The notes under the pieces are model-generated. The model saw only the letters and a program-made list of their open reading frames with translations. It did no database searches and had not been told where the DNA came from. 54,923 nucleotides of DNA from a virus (Duplodnaviria; Caudoviricetes): IMG/VR virus record IMGVR_UViG_3300046171_000008, positions 1 to 54,923 of that record. One strand, written 5' to 3'. A program made the translations under genes and the position numbers. The number at the start of each line of letters is the position of its first letter. Position 1 is the first letter of the stretch. Positions 1 through 54,923 of the stretch are shown here, piece by piece.

Positions 1-249
1 CACCGCCGTTATGTTATAACATTACATTCTTACAGTCTGGCATTCATGTTGCGGGTGGATATCGTCAAAGCATAGGTGATGCCTTGCCGGTATTGCCGCG
101 CATGGGGTGAAAATTGGCGGTTTTGCTAGGGTTTTGAGGCATTTTATTTGCTGGCAACGCCAGACATGCCTTTGATTTTTGCCAATTCTGGCAAATCTAT
201 CACGACATGCGACCCCGGCAGGGGCCACACCCCCGTAGGTAGTACGTAT
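1..249. repeat. Left direct terminal repeat (249 bp)
   Basis: 1..249 (caccgccgtt...agtacgtat) is identical to 54675..54923. Confidence 0.95.
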
Positions 250-409
250 ATACACATAAATACACAGATCAGGTAAATCAAGTGTTAACCACAAGGGCAA
301 TGCATAACTATACATGCACAAGTATAGTGCAATATGCCTAAAAAATAGGCAACTTTAGATAACTGGACCCATAAACTAGAAAACTGTAGTACCAGATGCA
401 GAAAGGGTG

Positions 410-438
410 TTGACAGGTAGGGCCAATTCTGGTATAAT
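410..438 (+). promoter_or_regulatory. Sigma70 promoter heading the + arm
   Basis: TTGACA(410-415)-17 nt-TATAAT(433-438), with extended -10 TG. Confidence 0.85.
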
Positions 439-459
439 TATGTATAACTAGGAATCATA

Positions 460-567
460 TAAGTGTTACACTTAACTGTACTTAGTTAAATCTATAAAAA
501 CACTTAGCTACAACACTTAAATGATTTAAAGTTTCTTTGTTAATACACTTAACTGAACACATAAGTG
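460..567. repeat. Cluster of short (A)CACTTA iterons
   Basis: TAAGTG 460, ACACTTAACTG 468 and 545, TACTTAG 479, ACACTTAG 500, ACACTTAA 513, TAAGTG 562. Confidence 0.65.
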
Positions 568-599
568 ATATCACCCGTGATAAAAGAAAGTACTTGACA

Positions 600-812
600 A
601 TGGCGAAGAAATCTGTAAAACTATACACAGACAATGTACTTGATGCATTCTACAATGCCATCCGTACAAACACATTAGACAAACTCCACATACCTCATAG
701 CGATGTTTTCTACGTGCGTACTGCCGTGGAGGCATACTATGGGCGTTCCTTTACTCTGAAACACGTAGAAGATGCTATGAGAGCAGAAGGGTGGACAGAG
801 AGGAACGAATGA
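600..812 (+). CDS. Hypothetical protein
   Basis: MAKKSVKLYT...; start chosen at ATG 600 inside the 537..812 ORF. Confidence 0.65.
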   Translation: MAKKSVKLYTDNVLDAFYNAIRTNTLDKLHIPHSDVFYVRTAVEAYYGRSFTLKHVEDAMRAEGWTERNE

Positions 813-2874: not shown

Positions 2875-3412
2875 GATTGAAGCTGACATACGTAAATGGT
2901 CAAATGATTTTCTTGAAGTACCCAATGCGAAGCTGAATGGCCTACCCCCATGCCCGTATGCAAAACAGGCGTGGCTAGATGGTAAAGTTACTTTTAGCAT
3001 CAATACAGGTATAGATGGACTAATACAATCTGTACGTGAGTTTGATACACACAACTACGACATTGTAGTGTGGGCTAATGAAGAACTGCCAAACATGGAA
3101 TACCTAGATGGTCTATGTGACGGCATGAATGAATTAATGTCTATAGCTGGCATTGATATGCACCTAATGGTGTTTCATCCAGACTACGATGCTGAAAAAG
3201 CTGGGCTGGACTTTTTAGTAGAAGATGGTATCGTAGATGATTCCCTAGAATACTGCATGGTATTTGTGCAGCGACTATCTGTGCTGGACGATGCAGCATT
3301 GAGTTTAGAAAAGAGTGGATACTATTTACATTTTCCTGTAGAAGTATTTCACTCATTAGTTATAGACAGACGGAGATTAAGAAATGAAAGGCAAGACAAA
3401 AGTAGCATCTAA
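2867..3412 (+). CDS. DUF1415-like protein
   Basis: PCPYA and VFHPDY motifs; GTG start inferred. Confidence 0.6.
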   Translation: MHKIEADIRKWSNDFLEVPNAKLNGLPPCPYAKQAWLDGKVTFSINTGIDGLIQSVREFDTHNYDIVVWANEELPNMEYLDGLCDGMNELMSIAGIDMHLMVFHPDYDAEKAGLDFLVEDGIVDDSLEYCMVFVQRLSVLDDAALSLEKSGYYLHFPVEVFHSLVIDRRRLRNERQDKSSI

Positions 3413-3524
3413 AAAAATGATGCGTGGCGGTGTAGCTGCAAAGAAAATGCGTGGTGGCGGTATGGCTAAAATGGCATCAAAGAAAAAAATGATGCGCGGT
3501 GGAATGGCTAAGAAGAAGAAGTAA
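3384..3524 (+). CDS. 46-aa protamine-like peptide with three GG-motif units (absent from the ORF track)
   Basis: MKGKTKVASKKMMRGGVAAKKMRGGGMAKMASKKKMMRGGMAKKKK; GGAG RBS at 3372; TAATG overlap with 3524. Confidence 0.8.
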   Translation: MKGKTKVASKKMMRGGVAAKKMRGGGMAKMASKKKMMRGGMAKKKK

Positions 3525-11431: not shown

Positions 11432-12983
11432 ACAAATGGAAATGTTTGATGACGGTGGTCTTATGGACGAAGGCGGCACAGTAGACCCTGTATCTGGTAA
11501 TGACGTGCCACCCGGCTCTACTCAAGAAGAAGTACGAGATGACATTCCCGCACAGCTTAGTGAAGGTGAATTTGTATTCCCTGCTGACGTAGTGCGTTAC
11601 ATTGGTCTAGGCAACTTGATGCGTATGCGTCAGGAAGCTAAGATGGGCCTAAAGTTAATGGATCAAATGGGCCAGATGGGCAATAGCGAAGAAGCTACTA
11701 TGCCAGATGACTTGCCATTTGATATTAATGATCTTGACATGGAAGACGAAATAGACGATAATAACGAATTAGAAATGCAAGTAGGTGGTTTTGTACAGCC
11801 TACACAACAACAACAACAGATGGGTATCAGTGGATATCAGCAAGCTGCAGCACCAACAACAGGAGTAGCAGCAGTGCCACAGCAAGCTGCATCACAGCAA
11901 TACGTACAACCTGTACAGCCTGTGCAAGCAGCAGTACCAACAATGCAAGCGTATAAACCAGAGGAAGTACCTACATTCCAGCAGACCATCGGTGACGATG
12001 CATTTGGAACTTATGATGAATTACGTCAATATCGCAATGAAGCAGGTAACATTCTTAATGTACCATTCCGTAATGGTCAGCCTATCAGCCCAATCCCAGA
12101 AGGCTACACATTTGTAGACCCAGAAGAGACTGCCACAGAAGAGGTAACAACTACACCTACAACGCCACAGACTACTACTGTACGTGAAGAAGGTGGAGAT
12201 GACGAAGCACGGCAACGCCGCGAGGAAGAAATGTATGGTCCGGGTGGTGGTAGACTTGGAGTAAAAGGAAAAACTTATGGTATTTCTTTTGATGGTGTAG
12301 GACTATTAGAAGGAAGGGGTATGTTAACTGGTTTAGCTTTGAGTGGAGAAATTCCTGATAAGTATGCTACTAGCGTATCTGTAAATATAAAACGTGGGGA
12401 TGACGAATTTGCAGTCAGGGGTGATGCTTATAATGAATTGAAAGAAGTAATTGAAGACTCTGGTGCAAATTCTCCTGCTGCTGAAAATAAATTGGCTGAG
12501 TTGCGTAGGCGATCTAATGCAATTAAAGAAGCAAAACGTAAAGCGCAAGAAGAGTTTGATAGGCTTGCTAAACTAAAAGAAAACGAAGAAGAACGTAAAC
12601 GCACAAAAGTACAGCCTTCATCGGATGACCCCGGAGGTAAAGGACCGTTTGGTACCGGATATACTTACGACCCTAAATCCGTAAAAGAAACCACAGACTA
12701 TGTAGAATCAGGATACCAAGAAGCCTCTGGAGGTGGAGGAGGCGGTTTTGGAGGTGGTAGCCCATCCTCTAGTTCAAGTTCTTCTAGCAGCAGTTCATCA
12801 GGTAGTAGTAAATCTTCTAGTTCGGGTTCATCCAGTGGTGGTTCATCTAAATCTAGTGGAGGCAGCTACGGCGCAAAAGACTCAACTGGGGGTTCTAGAC
12901 GATTCGATGAAGGTGGTTTAGCATCTAAACCTAAACCCAAAACTAAAAAGATGAAGCGTGGTGGATTAGCTTCTAAAAAATAA
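11409..12983 (+). CDS. Head-module protein with N-terminal GEFV domain and five xxGG motifs; candidate maturation protease or cargo adaptor
   Basis: DDIPAQLSEGEFVFPADVVRYIGLGNL; lies between portal and scaffold; Q-rich and S/G-rich low-complexity tracts; function is inference. Confidence 0.55.
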   Translation: MKLMALDKQMEMFDDGGLMDEGGTVDPVSGNDVPPGSTQEEVRDDIPAQLSEGEFVFPADVVRYIGLGNLMRMRQEAKMGLKLMDQMGQMGNSEEATMPDDLPFDINDLDMEDEIDDNNELEMQVGGFVQPTQQQQQMGISGYQQAAAPTTGVAAVPQQAASQQYVQPVQPVQAAVPTMQAYKPEEVPTFQQTIGDDAFGTYDELRQYRNEAGNILNVPFRNGQPISPIPEGYTFVDPEETATEEVTTTPTTPQTTTVREEGGDDEARQRREEEMYGPGGGRLGVKGKTYGISFDGVGLLEGRGMLTGLALSGEIPDKYATSVSVNIKRGDDEFAVRGDAYNELKEVIEDSGANSPAAENKLAELRRRSNAIKEAKRKAQEEFDRLAKLKENEEERKRTKVQPSSDDPGGKGPFGTGYTYDPKSVKETTDYVESGYQEASGGGGGGFGGGSPSSSSSSSSSSSSGSSKSSSSGSSSGGSSKSSGGSYGAKDSTGGSRRFDEGGLASKPKPKTKKMKRGGLASKK

Positions 12984-18014: not shown

Positions 18015-19807
18015 TGGCAGGTTACACTAGACAATCCACATATACTGACGGTGACGTTATTACCGCAGCACAGAGTAACAACGAATTTAATCAGTTACTT
18101 GCTGCTTTTGTAAATACCACTGGTCACAAACATGACGGCACTGCCGCTGAAGGTCCAGTAATAGGATTGATTGGTGACCCCGGTGTTGCCACACCACTTA
18201 ACAAAGTCGTAGTTAGTGATACAAACAATCGCATTGGTGTGTTTGTAGATGTAGGTGGCAGTTCAACAGAACAGATACGCTTTCAAGACGGTGCCATTGT
18301 TCCTGTCACAGATAACGACATTGACTTGGGTGCATCTGGCACAGAGTTCAAAGACCTGTTTATTGATGGCACAGCCAACATTGACGCACTTGTAGCTGAC
18401 ACTGCTGACATAAACGGTGGTACAATTGATGGTGTCACTATCGGTGGTGCATCAGCGGGTGCGATTACGGCTACCAGCTTGGTGGCTACTACTGCCGATA
18501 TCAATGGTGGTACAGTAGACGGTGCAGTAATTGGTGGGGCATCTGCTGCTGCCATTACAGGTACAACAATCGTAGCTAATACCAGTATTAATATTGCAGG
18601 TGATGGGGCGACTGTCACAGGCATTAAAGATGAAGACGACATGTCTTCCAATAGTGCGACTAAACTCGCCACGCAACAATCCATTAAGGCTTATGTAGAT
18701 GCCCAAGTCACAGCGCAAGACCTTGACTTCCAAGCAGATAGCGGTGGTGTTCTCTCTATCGACCTTGACAGCGAGACTTTTACGCTTACAGGTGGTACAG
18801 GGATTGATACTTCTGGTTCAGGTAATGCTGTTACTTTTGCTATTGACTCAACTGTAGCCACACTTACAGGTACACAGACACTTACCAATAAGACGCTTAC
18901 AACGCCCGTCATCTCCTCTATCAGTAACTCAGGTACTATTACCCTACCCACAGGCACAGACACGCTTGTAGGCCGTGCTACGACTGATACACTTACCAAT
19001 AAAACTCTTACAAGCCCGACTATTACTACTGGCGTACTTAATGGTGCAGTCAGCGGTACGTCTATTAAAGATGAAGACGATATGTCATCTGACAGCGCAA
19101 GCCATCTGGCTACGCAGCAGTCTATTAAAGCATACGTAGATAGCCAAGTAACTGCACAGGACTTTGACTTCTCTGGTGACAGTGGCGGCGCACAGAGTGT
19201 AGACCTTGATAGTCAGTCAATGACATTCACAGGTGGCACAGGTATTGATACAACAGGGTCATCACAGACAATGACCTTTGCTATTGATAGCACTGTAGCG
19301 ACACTGACAGGCTCACAAACTCTTACAAATAAAACCTTGACAAGTGCTGTACTCAATAGTACAATAAGTGGAACTTCCATTAAAGATGAAGACGATATGT
19401 CTTCTAACAGTGCCGACCATCTTGCTACACAACAGTCAATCAAAGCCTATGTAGATACACAAGTAGCCACTGTACCTGTCGGTGACATTACATCTGTAGT
19501 TGCTGGTTCTGGTATGACAGGTGGTGGTACATCTGGTGATGTTACACTGAATGTGATTGGTGGTACAGGTATTACTGCTAATGCTGATGAGATTACCATT
19601 GACAGCACAGTAACAACACTTACAGGTACACAGACACTTACAAATAAAACCCTGACTAGCCCTACTATTAATGGTGGCTCACTGTCAAGCACAGTCACGG
19701 GTACTACGCAATCTGCTGGCACAAGCAATACAACAATTGCTACAACAGCCTTTGCTGTCACAGAAGCTAACAATGCCGCTGTAGCAATGGCGATTGCACT
19801 AGGATAA
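18014..19807 (+). CDS. Tail fibre (proximal) with internal repeats
   Basis: GHKHDG N-terminal anchor, repeated TQTLTNKTLT, three IKDEDDMSS..LATQQSIKAYVD units, C-terminal AMAIALG. Confidence 0.8.
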   Translation: MAGYTRQSTYTDGDVITAAQSNNEFNQLLAAFVNTTGHKHDGTAAEGPVIGLIGDPGVATPLNKVVVSDTNNRIGVFVDVGGSSTEQIRFQDGAIVPVTDNDIDLGASGTEFKDLFIDGTANIDALVADTADINGGTIDGVTIGGASAGAITATSLVATTADINGGTVDGAVIGGASAAAITGTTIVANTSINIAGDGATVTGIKDEDDMSSNSATKLATQQSIKAYVDAQVTAQDLDFQADSGGVLSIDLDSETFTLTGGTGIDTSGSGNAVTFAIDSTVATLTGTQTLTNKTLTTPVISSISNSGTITLPTGTDTLVGRATTDTLTNKTLTSPTITTGVLNGAVSGTSIKDEDDMSSDSASHLATQQSIKAYVDSQVTAQDFDFSGDSGGAQSVDLDSQSMTFTGGTGIDTTGSSQTMTFAIDSTVATLTGSQTLTNKTLTSAVLNSTISGTSIKDEDDMSSNSADHLATQQSIKAYVDTQVATVPVGDITSVVAGSGMTGGGTSGDVTLNVIGGTGITANADEITIDSTVTTLTGTQTLTNKTLTSPTINGGSLSSTVTGTTQSAGTSNTTIATTAFAVTEANNAAVAMAIALG

Positions 19808-22232: not shown

Positions 22233-24767
22233 GTGACTAGAGCAAGAGACTTAGCAGATGCAGCCGATAAGGACTTCAGTGGCACCGTTACTGTAGACAA
22301 TATAACTATTGGCGGTAACATCTCGCAGGATAGCGGGACTGTTAAGCTGGACGGTAATTATCCTACTGGTACAGGCAACGTGGCGTTGGGTGATTCTGCG
22401 CTTGATGATGGCAGTTTGTCTGGTGATTATAATACGGCGGTTGGCTCTAATTCTCTGACGGCAAACACTACAGGCTCACAAGCTACTGCTGTTGGTGTTC
22501 ATGCGTTACAATTAAATACAACGGCAAGTTACAATACAGCAGTAGGCGTTAATTCAGCGCAGAACAATACAACAGGACAAAAAAACACTGCGCTTGGACA
22601 TAGTGCTGGGCGACTAACTACAACTGGTTCGTATAATGTTTCTGTTGGATTGGAGGCGTTATACTCAAACACCACCGCCAGCTTCAACACTGCCATTGGA
22701 GCATCTGCACTTCTGTCAAACACCACTGGAGGTGGTTTAGCCGCTGTGGGCTACAATGCGCTTGGTGCTAATACTACAGGCTCTGCTAACACTGCGATGG
22801 GCAGTGAGGCACTTGATGCTAACACAACGGCAGATAACAACACTGCCTTTGGGTATCAAGCACTGACTGCAAACACCACTGGCGTATCCAATGTCGCTGT
22901 AGGTGCTGAGTCTTTAAACGCAAACACCACTGGTGAGCAACACGCCGCTTTGGGCAAAAATGCTTTGAAAGTAAACACCACAGGAAGCAACAGTGTTGCC
23001 ATAGGTGCAGGAGCGTTACGGAACAATACTACCGCAAGTAGCAACACTGCTGTTGGGGCGATTGCTTTGAACGCAAACACCACTGGCGCAGAAAACGTAG
23101 CAGTGGGTTCAACAGCCTTAGATGCGAATACTACTGGAAATTATAACAATGCTTTTGGAAAAGACGCTCTAGGGGCGAACACTACAGGCGCGTATAACAC
23201 CGCAGTAGGAAGAATGGCTTTATTGACCAACACAACAGGAAGTAGCAATGTTGCTTTAGGGTCAAATTCGCTTAGATTTTCAACCACTGCAAGTAATAAC
23301 ACTGCGGTTGGTTACGACAGTTTAAGAGCAAACACCACTGGTCATTCAAATGCGGCTGTGGGTTACAACGCACTTCTCTTAAACACCACTGGTACATCCA
23401 ATGTCGCGTTTGGTTATCTTGCCGCAGATGCGAATACCACAGGGGGTGCCATAACTGCTATTGGTGAAAACGCATTGGGTGCAAACACCACCGCAAGTAA
23501 TAACACCGCTTGTGGTAGAGAGGCTTTAAAAAATAATACTACAGCAAGCGACAATACTGCTGTCGGAAATGCCGCGTTAAAACTAAACACCACTGGCGGG
23601 TCCAACGTAGCTGTCGGAAGTACAGCACTTGCCGCAAACACTACTGGTGCAAGCGGCACGGCAGTAGGTCGTTTTGCACTTGAAGCAAACACTACGGGCA
23701 ATCACAACACAGGTGTCGGTCAAAGTGCGCTTGAAGCTAACACTACAGGCTCAAACAACACGGCTGTTGGTCTTGCGGCTTTAGACTCTCAAACAACGGG
23801 TGCCAACAATGTAGCATTGGGCTATCAAGCTGGTCAGGCAATAACCACAAACGGTGACAGCACATTTGTAGGCACACAAGCTGGTTACAATACAACAGGA
23901 AATCGCAATCAATTTTTTGGATACGCATCTGGTGGTGAAGTAACGACAGGCTCTAACAATGTAATCTTAGGCCGTTACTCTGGCAATCAGGGTGGCATAG
24001 ACATTCGCACAGTCAGCAACAAAATTGTATTGTCTGATGGTGATGGCAATCCCAGAATGTGGAACGACTCTGAACGCTGGAGAATTTCAAATAGTGGAGT
24101 AGATACTTTTTTCCCAAATACAAGTTCTGCAAGTGGAACAAATGGCATTGTACTTGACGGAAATACTGGCAGTGGTGCTGGATATATTGGCATTACAGGT
24201 GGTGCAAATTTATTATATTTAGATAGAAACGCCTCTGACGGTGATTTAATAGTTTTTTATCAGGCTGGCACTGTTGAAGGTAGCATTTCAGTATCTGGCA
24301 CTACCGTGTCATACAACGGTGGACACCTATCTCGCTGGTCACAAGCTACAGACGGCAATCGTATTGACGGCCTACTCAAAGGCACCGTGATGACTAACCT
24401 CGACCAGATGGCTGAGTGGACTAAGGATGGCGTGACAGAAGATAACGAACAGCTTAACTGTATGGCTGTATCTTCAGTAGAAGGTGACCCAAATGTTGCT
24501 GGCGTGTTCGTTAACTGGGATGATGATGACGAGGACTACACCGCCGACATGAATATCGCAATGACAGGCGACATGATTATCCGCATTGCACAAAGCACAA
24601 CTGTCGCACGGGGTGACTTGCTAATGAGTGCTGGTGATGGCACGGCAAAGCCACAAGATGACGACATTGTTCGTAGCAAAACAATCGCAAAAGTAACATC
24701 AACCAATGTATCGCACACATATGACGATGGGTCATACTGTGTTCCTTGTGTCCTAATGGCTTGTTAA
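22233..24767 (+). CDS. Adhesin-like fibre with long 14-residue repeats (YadA-head-like beta-roll)
   Basis: More than 30 tandem N(T/V)A(V/L)GxxALxxNTT(G/A) repeats; N-terminal MTRARDLA; C-terminal PCVLMAC. Confidence 0.8.
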   Translation: MTRARDLADAADKDFSGTVTVDNITIGGNISQDSGTVKLDGNYPTGTGNVALGDSALDDGSLSGDYNTAVGSNSLTANTTGSQATAVGVHALQLNTTASYNTAVGVNSAQNNTTGQKNTALGHSAGRLTTTGSYNVSVGLEALYSNTTASFNTAIGASALLSNTTGGGLAAVGYNALGANTTGSANTAMGSEALDANTTADNNTAFGYQALTANTTGVSNVAVGAESLNANTTGEQHAALGKNALKVNTTGSNSVAIGAGALRNNTTASSNTAVGAIALNANTTGAENVAVGSTALDANTTGNYNNAFGKDALGANTTGAYNTAVGRMALLTNTTGSSNVALGSNSLRFSTTASNNTAVGYDSLRANTTGHSNAAVGYNALLLNTTGTSNVAFGYLAADANTTGGAITAIGENALGANTTASNNTACGREALKNNTTASDNTAVGNAALKLNTTGGSNVAVGSTALAANTTGASGTAVGRFALEANTTGNHNTGVGQSALEANTTGSNNTAVGLAALDSQTTGANNVALGYQAGQAITTNGDSTFVGTQAGYNTTGNRNQFFGYASGGEVTTGSNNVILGRYSGNQGGIDIRTVSNKIVLSDGDGNPRMWNDSERWRISNSGVDTFFPNTSSASGTNGIVLDGNTGSGAGYIGITGGANLLYLDRNASDGDLIVFYQAGTVEGSISVSGTTVSYNGGHLSRWSQATDGNRIDGLLKGTVMTNLDQMAEWTKDGVTEDNEQLNCMAVSSVEGDPNVAGVFVNWDDDDEDYTADMNIAMTGDMIIRIAQSTTVARGDLLMSAGDGTAKPQDDDIVRSKTIAKVTSTNVSHTYDDGSYCVPCVLMAC

Positions 24768-37475: not shown

Positions 37476-39446
37476 TCACGCTGCATTCAAGTCCACTACT
37501 TCACAGACACCAGCAGTACATGCCAACTCACGTCCACCTGAAGTATTATCTTCTTTCTCAAACTCCTGCAACTTAGACCAATTAACACTGCGAGGCATTT
37601 CTGCCATCATAGCATCATATTCATCTTCTGTGCAGTCCTGATATGGGGCTTGCTTATACACGTGATCGTCAAACGGCAGGAAGCTAATGCCTGACACTTC
37701 ATCAAAGTGTTTGTAAACCCAATCTCCTACTTCCATCCACTCATTCTCTTTTACAGAGACTGTTACAGATGGCTTATGCTCACACCAGTAACGCTGATAA
37801 GTAAGCCACAACTCAAGCTGTTCAATAGCCGACATGATTGTGCGTGTTACTGCCCCACGTGGTGCTGCCATTGGAAAGCTAAACACAGTAGTGCTGTGTG
37901 GCTTACCTACATCTGGCTCATTCGGTATACCTTCTGATATAAGGAACTGTGTAATGGGGTCTTTGTTATCACCACGTACAGTACGAATGTAGTGTGGGTT
38001 GTGCCTTGCATGGATGCCAGATGCACTGTCAACAAGCTGCGACACTGTGCCACTAGGCTTGACGCATGTGATAGCCGTTGACTGTGGAATACCAAGCTGT
38101 TCAGCCATAGCAGCGTTAGTCTCTACTGCTGTGTCACGCAATGTCTCCAGTGTCTGCCCAATGTTCTTGCCAAGATGGGCTGACGTACCACTGAGCAAGT
38201 CGTTGTCCATGATACCTGTCAGTGACACGCCCAGCAAACGCTCTTCCTCTGTGTTCTTCTGCCATACCTTACGCAGATATTTGAAGTCAGTCAGTGTTGA
38301 CTGGAATGTACCCAAGATTGTAGCCAAGCGTACCTTCTCACGCAATGTCTGTTGTGTGTCACTGGCACGTGCAACTACCTCTGACAAATTGCAGAACTGA
38401 TATGGGCGCAAGATAATTTCACTGCAAGGATTGCATCCGAAATCTTGTTCCGCATCACGCCTACCATTCTTAGCTGCTTGTACCTTTGCTGCTTGACGAT
38501 TGAAGATACCACGTTCACCAGAGTGTGATTCATATAGTGACAACCATTCCCGCATAAATGTACCCATCTCTGGTTTTACTTTATACGCTACAGAGTTATT
38601 AGCTAGTCCTCTTTGGCCTTCACGTTTAATACCCTTCTCAGGTTCATCCCACCATACACCTGACTTGGCATGTGCCATCTGGTCATCGTTCAAGTTGGAC
38701 AGGCTGATTAGTGCGCTACGGCGTACACCACCGACAACTACAACCTCACCAATCTTACACATGATATCGTGACACTCAATAGGATAAAGTCTGCGACCTG
38801 CTGCACCCTTAAACTTCTTAATGATAAAGTCAAAGAGTTCTTCCAAAGGTGCTGGGCCACTGGCACGACCACCAAATGTCTTTAGTCTTTCACCTGCAGG
38901 ACGCACCTCTGATACATCCCACTTTGGAATCTGACCTGCGTAAAGCAATGAGATAAGTTCACGCAGGGACTTTGCCCATCCGGGGCGGCTGTCACCTACT
39001 TTAATTACTGTATCTGTCTCATGCATATCTTCATTTACAATAGGCAACTTATCCACTACTTCACGCTCTACAGAGAAGCCTACACCCGTTCCACACATTA
39101 GAATGTACATAGTCTCATCAAATGCTCTAGGGCTGTCTACAGGCACGTAGGAACAGTTGTATGCACCCACGTGGCAGCGGTCTAGTGCTGGGCCAGATGT
39201 CATCAAGGCTCTCATGCTAGGCATGATATCTTGGTTCAGTACAGCATCCTCTAGTTCGCCACGCAGTTCATCTGACAGCACGTAATTGCATGTACTGTAC
39301 AAGTGGTTCTTCATATAGTCAAAGTAGCGTTCTACTGTTTCAACCCATGTCTCACGGCGTTGTTCATCTTCTTTCCATCGGGCATACCGTGATAGCGCGA
39401 TGAAGTTTTGGTAGTCTGTTGGTAGATAATTGTTCATATCTGTCAC
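37476..39446 (-). CDS. nrdJ: Ribonucleotide reductase class II (B12-dependent)
   Basis: PSMR, YNCS, GTGVG, GGVRRSA, NPCSEI, CNLSE, CVKPSGT, C-terminal CTAGVC; no beta-subunit gene in the genome. Confidence 0.92.
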   Translation of the reverse strand: MTDMNNYLPTDYQNFIALSRYARWKEDEQRRETWVETVERYFDYMKNHLYSTCNYVLSDELRGELEDAVLNQDIMPSMRALMTSGPALDRCHVGAYNCSYVPVDSPRAFDETMYILMCGTGVGFSVEREVVDKLPIVNEDMHETDTVIKVGDSRPGWAKSLRELISLLYAGQIPKWDVSEVRPAGERLKTFGGRASGPAPLEELFDFIIKKFKGAAGRRLYPIECHDIMCKIGEVVVVGGVRRSALISLSNLNDDQMAHAKSGVWWDEPEKGIKREGQRGLANNSVAYKVKPEMGTFMREWLSLYESHSGERGIFNRQAAKVQAAKNGRRDAEQDFGCNPCSEIILRPYQFCNLSEVVARASDTQQTLREKVRLATILGTFQSTLTDFKYLRKVWQKNTEEERLLGVSLTGIMDNDLLSGTSAHLGKNIGQTLETLRDTAVETNAAMAEQLGIPQSTAITCVKPSGTVSQLVDSASGIHARHNPHYIRTVRGDNKDPITQFLISEGIPNEPDVGKPHSTTVFSFPMAAPRGAVTRTIMSAIEQLELWLTYQRYWCEHKPSVTVSVKENEWMEVGDWVYKHFDEVSGISFLPFDDHVYKQAPYQDCTEDEYDAMMAEMPRSVNWSKLQEFEKEDNTSGGRELACTAGVCEVVDLNAA

Positions 39447-51301: not shown

Positions 51302-51448
51302 TTATGCGGCATCCCGCACAAATTGTTTAGCCTTGCGGCCCGTCTTACGGTTAAGTGTCTTTGTCTTACCCGCACTACGAAAGTGGTCACGTGAACTAGG
51401 CTTACGCTCAGTCTTTACGTTCTTCATTGGTTCGATCTTTACTTGCAT
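51302..51448 (-). CDS. 48-aa basic peptide (absent from the ORF track)
   Basis: MQVKIEPMKNVKTERKPSSRDHF...RKAKQFVRDAA. Confidence 0.5.
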   Translation of the reverse strand: MQVKIEPMKNVKTERKPSSRDHFRSAGKTKTLNRKTGRKAKQFVRDAA

Positions 51449-52101: not shown

Positions 52102-52136
52102 TAGTCTCTCCTGTCAAAATATTTACCAGTAAATTT

Positions 52137-53522: not shown

Positions 53523-54284
53523 TTAGGCTGTTTTCTTGATTTTGCTTTCTTGCGCGGCTTGCCATGCTTTGGCGGTAATTCCTGCGGTTTTCAGAAATTC
53601 TTTTTCCATGGCATTTTGCAATGCTGCAAGAATGGTTTTTGCGGTAAATGCGTCAATATCGCCAGACTGAGCTTTTGCGATTGCAGCCGCATATTGGCCG
53701 ACAAATTCAGACGCTGGCGGGGTTGCGTTTTCTGGCGTGGCATCATTGCCGCCATTGTCGCTGTCGCTGTCGCCATTGTCGCTGTCGCTGTCGTTTTTAG
53801 GCGTATTCTTTTTGATAGCATTCGCAAGGGACCGGACGTTAAACAATTTCGCAATTTTCTTGGCGTTTTTTTCATCCGCATAATATGCCGCGCAACCATC
53901 TTTTGATACTTCCGCACCATCCTTAAATTGTTTGATAGCATTCAAAATGACAGCAACCCGCAAGTCATATAACGCGGTCATTCCTTCCTTATCCATCAAA
54001 CGCTTATACAGCGCGTTGTCTTTGGTGCCAGCTTTTCCTTTCGTATAGCTATGGCCAGAAATAGGGCATTTATAACCGCTCTTGCCTACGTCTACAGGAC
54101 GCAAGCTATCAGCATGGCATAGGGCTTCAGCATTCGCGATTGCGTTAAATTCGGCATATGGGTTAACCAAAAGGCCAGCATTTTGCGCGGCGCGGTTTTC
54201 AATTTCTGGTGCCACAAAATTTGTTTCAACAAAAGCAATGGCATTTTCAAGAGTGATAACAGACATGGTATATATCCTTTTCAA
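53523..54284 (-). CDS. First early gene, unknown function (start possibly 54266)
   Basis: 253-aa Ala/Lys-rich ORF with an acidic DSDSDNG linker and its own terminator. Confidence 0.7.
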   Translation of the reverse strand: MKRIYTMSVITLENAIAFVETNFVAPEIENRAAQNAGLLVNPYAEFNAIANAEALCHADSLRPVDVGKSGYKCPISGHSYTKGKAGTKDNALYKRLMDKEGMTALYDLRVAVILNAIKQFKDGAEVSKDGCAAYYADEKNAKKIAKLFNVRSLANAIKKNTPKNDSDSDNGDSDSDNGGNDATPENATPPASEFVGQYAAAIAKAQSGDIDAFTAKTILAALQNAMEKEFLKTAGITAKAWQAAQESKIKKTA

Positions 54285-54674
54285 TTCTGGCGAATGGCCG
54301 CCAGTAGGCCTCCGATCATTTTGATCGTTCTTTTAGTATACTGATTATTTCGCATGAATAAAGCCCTAAAATGAATGGGGGCGAAATATTTACCAGTAAA
54401 TTTTTAGACCAGTTTTAGGGCTGTTTTTGGCTCTATATATGGGGCTGTTTTGCTATATCGTCTGCAACGTAGGGTGGAAGCCAAAAATGCGTCTAGCATG
54501 GTTTGTGATAGGTTATAGCTGATATAAGTAAAAGCCCGCCAGTGGGGCTTAAAACGCGATTAAGGGCATGTTGCCTATATGCCACAACACATATGCCACA
54601 CTGTTGCATATATGTCACACCGGATAGTAGTTGCGAATCATTCGCAAGTAGGGGGTATGGTGTGTGAAAACGTA

Positions 54675-54923
54675 CACCGCCGTTATGTTATAACATTACA
54701 TTCTTACAGTCTGGCATTCATGTTGCGGGTGGATATCGTCAAAGCATAGGTGATGCCTTGCCGGTATTGCCGCGCATGGGGTGAAAATTGGCGGTTTTGC
54801 TAGGGTTTTGAGGCATTTTATTTGCTGGCAACGCCAGACATGCCTTTGATTTTTGCCAATTCTGGCAAATCTATCACGACATGCGACCCCGGCAGGGGCC
54901 ACACCCCCGTAGGTAGTACGTAT
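54675..54923. repeat. Right direct terminal repeat (249 bp)
   Basis: Identical to 1..249. Confidence 0.95.

Follow-up and report, generated by a model that had tools for sequence, protein, structure and literature searches.

Organization of the genome and of its control region

The IMG/VR record IMGVR_UViG_3300046171_000008 is a viral DNA of 54,923 nucleotides (nt), which was analysed over its whole length and is called the window in the following. It is the complete genome of a podophage of the HMO-2011 type. Between its two divergent gene arms lies a control region devoid of genes, which runs through the ends of the record and is crowded with inverted repeats (dyads). An earlier note made from the sequence, referred to here as the original prediction, proposed that this region is a panel of binding sites for transcription factors of the host. 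Judging from the analysis described here, the region is mixed: it contains elements of the phage family that have no counterpart in the host, and at least four sites which match operators of host regulators, namely a Zur box, a Mur-like box of the Fur family, an NtrC-type box and a second palindrome of host type (Table 1). Host regulators may bind these sites and gate early phage transcription, in a form of cis-regulation by borrowed regulators; this is the reading that we favour, with no more than even confidence.

The assignment to the HMO-2011 type is based on the presence of the DNA polymerase, helicase, primase, terminase, portal, reductase and MazG genes and on the two divergent arms; the group and its gene content are described in PMC9038755. 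The capsid protein shares 79% identity with its counterpart in the Puniceispirillum (SAR116) phage HMO-2011 and 77% with the one in the Roseobacter phage CRP-345. The plus arm (600-35347) carries small genes and the lysis, terminase, portal, capsid and tail genes, and the minus arm (54266 down to 35504) carries small genes and those of the primase, helicase, DNA polymerase, exonuclease, ribonucleotide reductase and MazG. The protein encoded by the first gene of the minus arm gave no match in a tblastn search against phages. The integrase mentioned in the original prediction was not recovered: the tyrosine integrase family PF00589 has no match in six frames of the window at E <= 1 and none in the PHROGs and Pfam scans of the open reading frames (ORFs), serine recombinases not being searched separately. 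The same scans of the ORFs revealed no phage RNA polymerase and no Fur-family or NtrC-like protein.

Once one copy of the terminal repeat is removed, the gene-free stretch consists of positions 54267-54674 and 1-599, about 990 nt in total, and it is bounded on the minus side by the ATG at 54266 which starts the first gene of that arm. The original prediction was therefore right in placing about 1 kb of non-coding DNA between the divergent arms, but the stretch extends beyond the segment 250..410 that it gave, to position 599. A scan of the whole window against Rfam returned no family, and positions 54285-54923 had no blastn match among 50,697 phage records. An ORF of 99 amino acids (aa) on the minus strand crosses the repeat; it is broken in the relative L028, so the existence of a protein gene there was rejected.

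The stretch of about 990 nt holds 13 dyads whose arms are perfect over at least 6 nt and whose spacer does not exceed 8 nt. Dinucleotide shuffles contain 2.60 +/- 1.48 such dyads, and none of 300 shuffles reaches 13. Among 211 windows of equal size from the remaining genome, the mean is 2.35 and no window exceeds 9. The outcome was the same with four other definitions of a dyad. The crowding that had been noticed is thus far above chance, and each of the sites that the original prediction named is present at its position; their assignment to regulators is another matter, which is treated site by site below.

Table 1. Features of the control region, with the genes that bound it (positions in the window; a dot marks a feature without strand).
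Feature	Position	Strand	Remarks
Left repeat copy	1..249	.	Exact repeat; IMG/VR class: direct terminal repeats (DTR)
Zur box GTTATGTTATAACATTAC	54682..54699 = 8..25	.	Exact 18-mer; a copy in each repeat; core TGtTATAAC
Dyad TTTGCCA-ATTC-TGGCAAA	178..195	.	Inside the repeat
Region after the repeat	250..599	+	Conserved block, two host-type palindromes, sigma-70 promoter, leader; about 70% identical to HMO-2011
36-nt block AAATACACAGATCAGGTAAATCAAGTGTTAACCACA	258..293	+	Almost invariant in the family; aligned with HMO-2011 and CRP-345
NtrC-type box TGCACAAGTATAGTGCA	315..331	.	One mismatch from TGCACAA-N3-TTGTGCA
Second host-type palindrome TGCCTAAAAAATAGGCA	335..351	.	Exact 17-mer in 4 host-family genomes
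Consensus sigma-70 promoter TTGACA-N17-TATAAT	410..438	+	12/12 hexamer matches; TG before second hexamer; faces the plus arm
Leader dyads TAAGTGTTACACTTA and TTAACTGTACTTAGTTAA	460..489	+	Just past the promoter; phage-specific operator candidates
First plus-arm gene	600..812	+	Start codon ATG at 600 conserved across the family
First minus-arm gene (replication arm)	53523..54266	-	Lineage-specific, no family match; relatives in two IMG/VR contigs only
Control region right of the minus arm, outside the repeat	54267..54674	.	No conserved ORF; dyad density far above shuffles
Five-copy repeat AAATATTTACCAGTAAATTTTT (dyad ATTTAC-N2-GTAAAT), one copy	54385..54406	.	Conserved in L030 and L028
Terminator-like hairpin and T-run	54532..54550	-	Overlaps the 'CtrA' TTAA-N7-TTAA at 54549-54563
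Two 18-bp dyads (54569-54586, 54602-54619)	54569..54619	.	Imperfect; second 14/18 symmetric by eye; conserved in L030 and L028
Mur-like Fur-family box TTGCGAATCATTCGCAA = TTGCGAAT-C-ATTCGCAA	54631..54647	.	Perfect 8+1+8 palindrome
Family-conserved element GGGGGTATGGT, -10-like	54651..54661	.	Between the Mur-like and Zur boxes; similar element after the variable cassette in about 40 related loci
Hairpin TGGTGTGTGAAAACGTACACCG	54658..54679	+	Contains the 'LacI-like' site; inner bases differ in L030 and L028
Right repeat copy	54675..54923	.	Exact repeat

The Zur box

The sites of the phage were searched in bacterial genomes, the number of matches was compared with that of a reversed-pattern control, and the genes next to the matches were inspected. 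The regulator names proposed in this work rest on the genes that adjoin these bacterial copies. The host family is that of the genome G004 (a Tateyamaria record; Rhodobacteraceae), from which samples of 151, 101 or 61 genomes were used, depending on the test. The SAR116 test set was the order of a SAR116 genome (61 genomes in the test of the NtrC-type site). Several totals were summed by hand from the match tables. Related phages were compared over 81 loci, which were anchored on the 36-nt block; positions with a minus sign are counted from this block.

The resemblance to Zur boxes that had been pointed out at 54682 and at 8 proved to be letter-perfect. The pattern GTWATGTTATAACATWAC occurs at more than 122 loci of a set of species-representative genomes, nearly all of them in Proteobacteria according to the titles of the records, and these loci include three SAR116 records and two roseobacter records. 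In 80 fetched loci, the adjoining ORFs encode cobW/COG0523 proteins (20), Plug/TonB receptors (9), ABC ATPases (9), FUR proteins (6), ZnuA (5), DUF1826 proteins (4), paralogues of L31 (3) and of DksA (2), and GTP cyclohydrolases (2). By hand count, about 51 of the 80 loci adjoin families of the Zur regulon; we take the whole gene set to be the classic Zur regulon. The pattern is also found in the host family, where 65 of 101 genomes matched and 15 of 30 loci adjoin cobW, ZnuA, ZinT or FUR. The phage site is a palindrome of the ATGTTATAACAT class, as are the boxes of the Zur regulon. PMC1698941 and PMC7029138 deal with the Zur and Mur operators of Alphaproteobacteria. The site is a predicted Zur operator, to which Zn-loaded Zur would bind and at which it would repress transcription in a zinc-dependent manner.

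The Zur box is conserved. Together with its immediate flanks it is unchanged in the relatives L030 and L042, while L028 has a single base difference; in all of them it lies 250 nt before the block. The sequence around it is largely different in L042: the wider flanks have diverged while the box was kept. The chance expectation of the exact 18-mer in the stretch is 2.6e-7. By eye, its core can be read as an extended -10 element in both directions; there is no good -35 element and no gene within 400 nt.

The Mur-like box and the exchange of its cassette

The second metal box lies about 35 nt from the Zur box, with the conserved -10-like element between them. The original prediction had compared it with Fur sites. 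It is indeed a box of the Fur family, which can be described more precisely as Mur-like, since its copies in Rhodobacteraceae stand before PF01297 and FUR-family genes. With up to 2 mismatches, the pattern TTGCGAATNATTCGCAA was found in 109 of 151 genomes of the host family, with 222 sites versus 27 for the reversed control (hand count), and tandem pairs spaced by 28-31 nt are common. Genes of PF01297 metal-binding proteins adjoin 11 of 31 such loci and FUR-family genes adjoin 2 of 31. The box therefore has the features of a Fur-family operator, a palindrome of 17-19 nt before metal-uptake genes and a regulator gene, even if the phage box is single and not in tandem. The chance expectation for this palindrome of 17 nt in the stretch is about 3e-7.

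The Zur-type box marks different PF01297 genes, along with cobW and ZinT, which implies that the box at 54631-54647 belongs to another regulator of the Fur family. The text of PMC1698941 describes a palindromic Mur box of 19 bp before sitABCD and mntH, and the linkage of mur and sitABCD in Rhodobacterales; the label "Mur-like" was chosen on these grounds. This label comes from the neighbouring genes and from that text, and it is provisional as regards the paralogue (Mur, Fur or Irr) and the metal. In the SAR116 order, the Fur-family pattern is weaker (about 116 sites versus 42 in the control) and iron genes were found at only 3 of the 12 loci with testable neighbours.

The closest relatives of the phage carry something else at this position. 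The contigs L030, L028 and L042 have a different module of 45 nt, with the motif GTTC-N7-GTTC at -299; the Mur-like box of the window lies at -301. We take GTTC-N7-GTTC to be the form of the alphaproteobacterial LexA (SOS) box. With 2 mismatches the LexA pattern is noisy compared to its control, and the neighbour test was limited to sites which keep both GTTC words: 4 of 17 loci in the Rhodobacteraceae family lie before recA (2), an S24 peptidase gene (1) or the gene of the repair protein MmcB (1). In the 81 loci, there are 35 LexA-type boxes in the 64.5 kb upstream of the block, distributed over 21 loci, none in the 350 nt from the block onward and 6 in the 87.6 kb beyond block+350, which are mostly coding. 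No LexA box was found in the non-coding stretch of the window, and the sole match in its genome is in coding sequence, at 51419. The slot thus appears to be occupied by a LexA operator in many lineages, and by one of the Fur family in the window phage.

The 21 loci with LexA-type boxes are L011, L013, L017, L025, L027, L028, L030, L039, L042, L048, L051, L053, L057, L060, L061, L064, L068, L072, L074, L078 and L083. The boxes are mostly located from -260 to -350 or from -60 to -85, and L011 and L060 each have four GAAC words in steps of 11 nt. In addition, the contigs of two other seawater runs (X3 and X4) break at 54618 and 54659, which are the borders of the exchangeable cassette; this suggests that co-occurring strains differ at 54618-54659.

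The boxes of host type might also be look-alikes without function, either recent neutral pick-ups or AT-rich palindromes that arose by convergence. The presence of the Mur-like box in the window phage only and the rapid turnover of cassettes in the region are what one would expect in that case. On the contrary, the Zur box is kept in relatives, including L042, which is otherwise divergent around it. The good copies of the four host-type motifs are all in the control region, whereas only matches with 3-4 mismatches occur in the other 53.7 kb of the genome. Lastly, the Mur-like box is unchanged in contigs of three runs (X1, X2 and X3) from three studies, one of which is possibly the source of the record. 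This explanation seems very unlikely to us. A captured host promoter was also considered; none of the 282 fetched host loci is similar over more than 23 nt, which rules it out.

Trial placements of -35 and -10 hexamers around the Mur-like and Zur boxes were made by eye, and they were rejected because of poor hexamers or spacing. A small RNA of about 150 nt could be read on the minus strand (window 54532-54680); starting from the extended -10 of the Zur box, it would span the Mur-like box and then the iteron-like repeats described below, and would end at the hairpin and T-run at 54550-54532.

The NtrC-type site, the second palindrome and the plus-arm promoter

The original prediction placed two NtrC sites downstream of the repeat, at 315 and 335. 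The first is supported by the host test: allowing one mismatch, TGCACAA-N3-TTGTGCA occurs at 41 sites in 28 of 61 genomes of the Rhodobacteraceae family, compared to 2 sites for the control (hand count). Of the 20 loci fetched, 9 are within long ORFs; among the other 11, 5 precede genes of P-II proteins and 1 precedes dus/nifR3. The dyads are of the TGC-N11-GCA type and stand before genes of nitrogen control. The dyad is present, with up to 2 mismatches, in 34 of the 80 related loci. No enrichment was seen in the 61 genomes of the SAR116 order (5 sites versus 5 in the control), which do encode enhancer-binding proteins.

The second site is a genuine palindrome of the host, for which NtrC is at most a candidate binder. 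The motif TGCCTAA-N3-TTAGGCA has 15 exact sites in 61 genomes of the host family; 5 of 12 inspected loci are before uvrC and 1 is before dus/nifR3. In G004, one copy is located just upstream of a stretch with ntr-type enhancer-binding genes.

Both palindromes precede the consensus sigma-70 promoter of the plus arm, which is kept in L001 (another number of L030) and in HMO-2011, a similar promoter being present downstream of the block in 55 of the 80 related loci. They are centred about 122 and 102 nt before the start expected for the promoter at 410-438; the second differs in type from the first and is linked to uvrC in hosts. No sigma-54 promoter could be recognized by eye after the NtrC-type sites. 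According to 10.1101/2023.06.06.543975, the NtrC of Rhodobacterales lacks the GAFTGA loop that contacts sigma-54, and the NtrC of R. capsulatus activates transcription through sigma-70. An NtrC input to a sigma-70 promoter would therefore be coherent in these bacteria.

Elements of the phage family and sites without host signal

At least 80 IMG/VR contigs match the pattern of the 36-nt block exactly, and the block could act as a signal for packaging or as an origin. A G/C-rich stretch of the form CCAC..CCCCGT precedes it. The layout on either side of the block is common to the family. Downstream, one finds two palindromes, the sigma-70 promoter, a leader with repeated dyads and the conserved first gene. 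Upstream, unrelated dyads are located at fixed distances, near -125, -178, -250 and -285, and a conserved element resembling GGGGTATGGT is directly preceded by the variable cassette.

The repeat AAATATTTACCAGTAAATTTTT occurs in copies of 40 nt at 52110, 52884, 53234, 53378 and 54377, which places it in the early minus arm and in the control region. Two of these copies follow an exact repeat of 40 nt (52927 and 53273) with minus-strand promoters of the form TTGACA-N17-TAGTAT. The corresponding dyad TATTTACCAGTAAATT, searched with up to 3 mismatches in host-family genomes, gave by eye about as many matches as its control, and none with 0 or 1 mismatch among the matches listed. The motif is not enriched in the host family, and it is therefore probably the site of a phage-encoded protein, the likely binder being an early regulator. 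The two 18-bp dyads form part of three direct repeats ATATG(C/T)CACA, which resemble iterons.

Several of the sites named in the original prediction found no support as host sites. The 18-bp dyads (TGTNNCATATATGNNACA) gave 5 matches versus 4 for the control in 61 host-family genomes. The dyad TTTGCCA-N4-TGGCAAA at 178 gave about 90 versus 45 in host-family genomes, only about a twofold excess, and its matches have the appearance of coding sequence. The CtrA motif TTAA-N7-TTAA at 54549-54563 occurs twice in the phage genome, versus 2.04 expected; it overlaps the terminator-like hairpin, and its second TTAA reads TTTA in both closest relatives, L030 and L028. The LacI-like site (54664-54677) is weak, its inner bases being conserved in neither L030 nor L028. 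The NrdR site at 54430 (CTCTATATATGGGG) is a single weak match, which agrees at about 11 of 16 positions with the NrdR consensus and is deleted in L028. NrdR sites are expected as paired palindromes of 16 nt before reductase genes, whereas this site is single and far from the reductase gene at 37476-39446.

Other dyads of the family also gave no signal. The leader dyad TTAAGTG-N3-CACTTAA had 4 matches versus 15 for the control in host genomes, and the dyad TTACAAC-N2-GTTGTAA, which HMO-2011 has at the position of the Zur box, had about 41 versus more than 80 in the SAR116 order. That such phage dyads remain without host signal shows that the host test discriminates. The phage-specific sites (the block, the five-copy dyad, the iteron-like repeats and the leader dyads) surely serve phage proteins.

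It could be argued that all the dyads, including those that resemble host sites, serve functions of the phage, such as the formation of ends and packaging, the origin or the binding of phage-encoded regulators, the host regulators playing no part. Indeed, both edges of the 249-nt repeat lie in sequence conserved in the family, relatives have unrelated dyads at set distances, near -285, -250, -178 and -125, one of which, in HMO-2011, is not a host motif, and five types of dyads in the window phage have no host counterpart. The NtrC-type dyad is moreover kept in a SAR116 phage and is not enriched in SAR116 genomes. This idea accounts well for the phage-specific sites, but it does not explain four separate matches to motifs of host regulons; the Zur 18-mer and the Mur-like palindrome of 17 nt are each expected by chance at about 3e-7, and none of the scanned phage ORFs encodes a Fur-family or NtrC-like protein. 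We consider it unlikely as an account of the whole region.

Relatives carry further dyads in their control regions. That of CRP-345 (L005, record 53837-54718) has two copies of TTTGTGATCACAAA and one dyad TGTCCAACGTTGGACG. A dyad TGTATAGC-N2-4-GCTATACA is found at about -283 in L014, L018, L026, L041, L049, L052, L059 and L070. It shares its core with the enterobacterial MntR consensus AACATAGC-N4-GCTATGTT given in PMC1698941. Dyads TGTCC-N5-7-GGACA are present in 2-3 copies per control region in L011, L060, L037, L031 and others, and L011 for example has three copies of TGTCCCAACTTGGGACA. These dyads resemble operators for a single protein specific to one lineage.

The terminal repeat and other repeats of the genome

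The first and last 249 nt of the record (1-249 and 54675-54923) are 100% identical. The copies of this repeat are putative physical ends of the genome. Its edges are located in sequence conserved in the family, one about 8 nt before the 36-nt block and the other inside an element resembling ATGCACCGCC, a situation which would suit conserved cutting sites. Alternatively, the ends of the record may be break points of the assembly, since the block is longer than the word size of the assembler and is common to co-occurring relatives. The relative L001, an IMG/VR contig about 90% identical, and a Logan contig of run X1 cross the junction from 54674 to 1 with a single copy of the repeat, and a contig of run X2 ends 8 nt past 54923, at the block. 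Five near-complete relatives are classed as linear, are cut elsewhere, have no end repeats and contain the block internally; they speak neither for nor against real ends. The evidence from sequencing runs consists of assembled contigs of 24 runs, with no joints or pile-ups reported.

Repeats are also present within the gene arms. A tail-spike-like gene of 844 aa contains 12 copies of a 44-nt unit spaced by multiples of 51 nt (window 22454-23823) and a tail-fibre gene of 597 aa contains a 280-nt unit three times, with 60-100% identity between the copies (window 18623-19658); these are internal domain repeats. A unit of 35 nt that encodes K-K-M-(M)-R-G-G forms a tandem of three copies at the end of a small gene (3411-3517) and occurs once at the end of a gene of 524 aa (12945-12979).

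A proposed mechanism

The sequence matches of the host-type sites, their regulon context in bacteria, their restriction to the control region, the conservation of the Zur box and the exchange of the cassette are direct observations. The mechanism that we propose takes the stretch as the central control region between the replication arm and the lysis/structural arm. Zur and Mur of the host, loaded with metal, would bind as repressors at a transcription start region beside the edge of the repeat. Their boxes bracket the -10-like element and the hairpin, and transcription starting there would be repressed. Phosphorylated NtrC would be an upstream activator of the plus-arm promoter at 410-438. 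Early phage transcription would then track the state of the host in zinc, in manganese or iron and in nitrogen. The position of the Mur-like box would be an exchangeable input, the closest relatives carrying LexA (SOS) boxes there. Binding during infection, the promoter that would be gated and its direction, and the sign of the effect are predictions of this scheme, which also presumes the family of the host.

A number of observations weigh against regulation by host proteins. The Mur-like box is absent from all 80 related loci and is thus found in the window phage only among 81, so conservation gives it no support. A scan for sigma-70-type promoters found none in 54267-54923. About 400 and 575 nt separate the metal boxes from the nearest start codons, more than in host promoters. 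The promoter at 410-438 already has the consensus sequence, looks constitutive and may thus work without an activator. In HMO-2011, whose host belongs to the order in which the NtrC-type dyad is not enriched, this dyad is perfect and may serve a phage protein. The dyad that HMO-2011 has at the position of the Zur box is not a host motif, which means that host sites are no general rule at these positions. The control region of CRP-345 lacks the Zur, Mur and NtrC-type boxes altogether. Finally, the hosts of the nearest isolates are SAR116 (for HMO-2011) and a roseobacter (for CRP-345), and that of the window phage is a presumed one.

The distance to the start codons and the lack of a clear promoter around the boxes, which are of consensus grade, would also fit a decoy. 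The boxes would then soak up Zur and Mur of the host (LexA in relatives) as the phage genomes multiply, and the host genes for the uptake of zinc and of manganese or iron would be turned on, no phage promoter being gated. The Fur titration assay is based on this principle: a Fur box on a multicopy plasmid de-represses Fur-controlled genes. If the terminal repeat is real, each genome has two Zur boxes. However, there are only one or two sites per regulator, where arrays would serve better. In different phages, the Mur-like and LexA boxes are found at the same fixed place beside a conserved element, which gives them the look of a cis-acting input. NtrC is an activator and its titration brings no obvious benefit. 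Titration without any gating is distinctly unlikely in our view.

Regulation of early transcription by host proteins can be extended to a more general scheme, which we regard as rather unlikely. HMO-2011-type phages would have a plug-in sensor slot, in which operators of host repressors are swapped at a fixed distance from a core: LexA in many of them, a Fur-family regulator here, with Zur beside it and NtrC-type sites ahead of the main promoter. Such a virus, having no repressor itself, would compute zinc, manganese/iron, nitrogen and DNA damage with the proteins of its host, and it would also titrate these proteins, opening the metal-uptake genes of the host.

Comparison with known systems

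The closest parallel is found in marine cyanophages. NtcA sites have been predicted in 16 genomes of cyanophage myophages, according to PMC3037559. Pho boxes are present in S-PM2d, and the host PhoB binds fragments of phage promoters, the authors warning that prediction alone is unreliable (PMC10976474). In both cases, lytic marine phages have sites for nutrient regulators of the host before their own genes. The cyanophage sites are scattered before single genes, with 1-16 NtcA sites per genome; a single regulator is involved in each case and the consensus is short and loose. In contrast, the window phage, which is known here from its sequence, has sites for several regulators in one control region, two of them 17-18 nt long and of consensus grade, and its hosts would be heterotrophic Alphaproteobacteria.

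CTXphi and GIL01 are phages whose switch is run by the LexA of the host. They share with the phages studied here an operator for a host repressor, which in the control region replaces or accompanies a phage repressor, and LexA-type boxes are present in 21 of the 81 related loci. The window phage differs in that its region has no LexA box, the slot is occupied by a Fur-family box and no integrase was found. Compared with the Zur and Mur operators of the hosts, as presented in PMC1698941 and PMC7029138, the phage boxes are of the same sequence class and length, and their bacterial copies have the same adjoining genes. The host boxes are tens of nt before the regulated gene (about 35-70 nt in the loci L365 and L239), whereas the start codons of the phage are about 400-575 nt away.

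The podophages of the T7 type with short repeats have a gene-free stretch across a short direct terminal repeat, which is crowded with repeats, promoters and conserved end sequences. The window phage has such a gene-free stretch that spans its repeat; it differs in that its ends are putative and in that no phage RNA polymerase was found. We know of no counterpart of the host-regulator boxes in T7.

Full-text literature searches brought up no report of such sites in HMO-2011-type phages. The text of PMC9038755 does not contain the words "promoter", "intergenic", "non-coding" or "repressor". What appears to be new is a single control region with consensus-grade sites of several regulators, in an abundant type of phage that infects heterotrophic Alphaproteobacteria, and the exchange of operators at a fixed slot.

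Implications for marine phages

How abundant phages of the ocean adjust their infection to the nutrient state of the host is largely unknown outside of cyanophages. The sites described here are short, exact and testable. They tie a widespread type of phage to the zinc, manganese/iron and nitrogen regulators of its host, and sister phages to the SOS response. If host regulators do gate early transcription, the limitation in trace metals and nitrogen which is common in surface seawater would directly shape the development of the phage, and in this way bacterial mortality. The set of motifs would also provide a new handle for the prediction of hosts, and it would point to Rhodobacteraceae in the present case. 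Regulatory evolution would then proceed by the exchange of operators instead of genes, in phages of the HMO-2011 type, which are among the most abundant in the sea.

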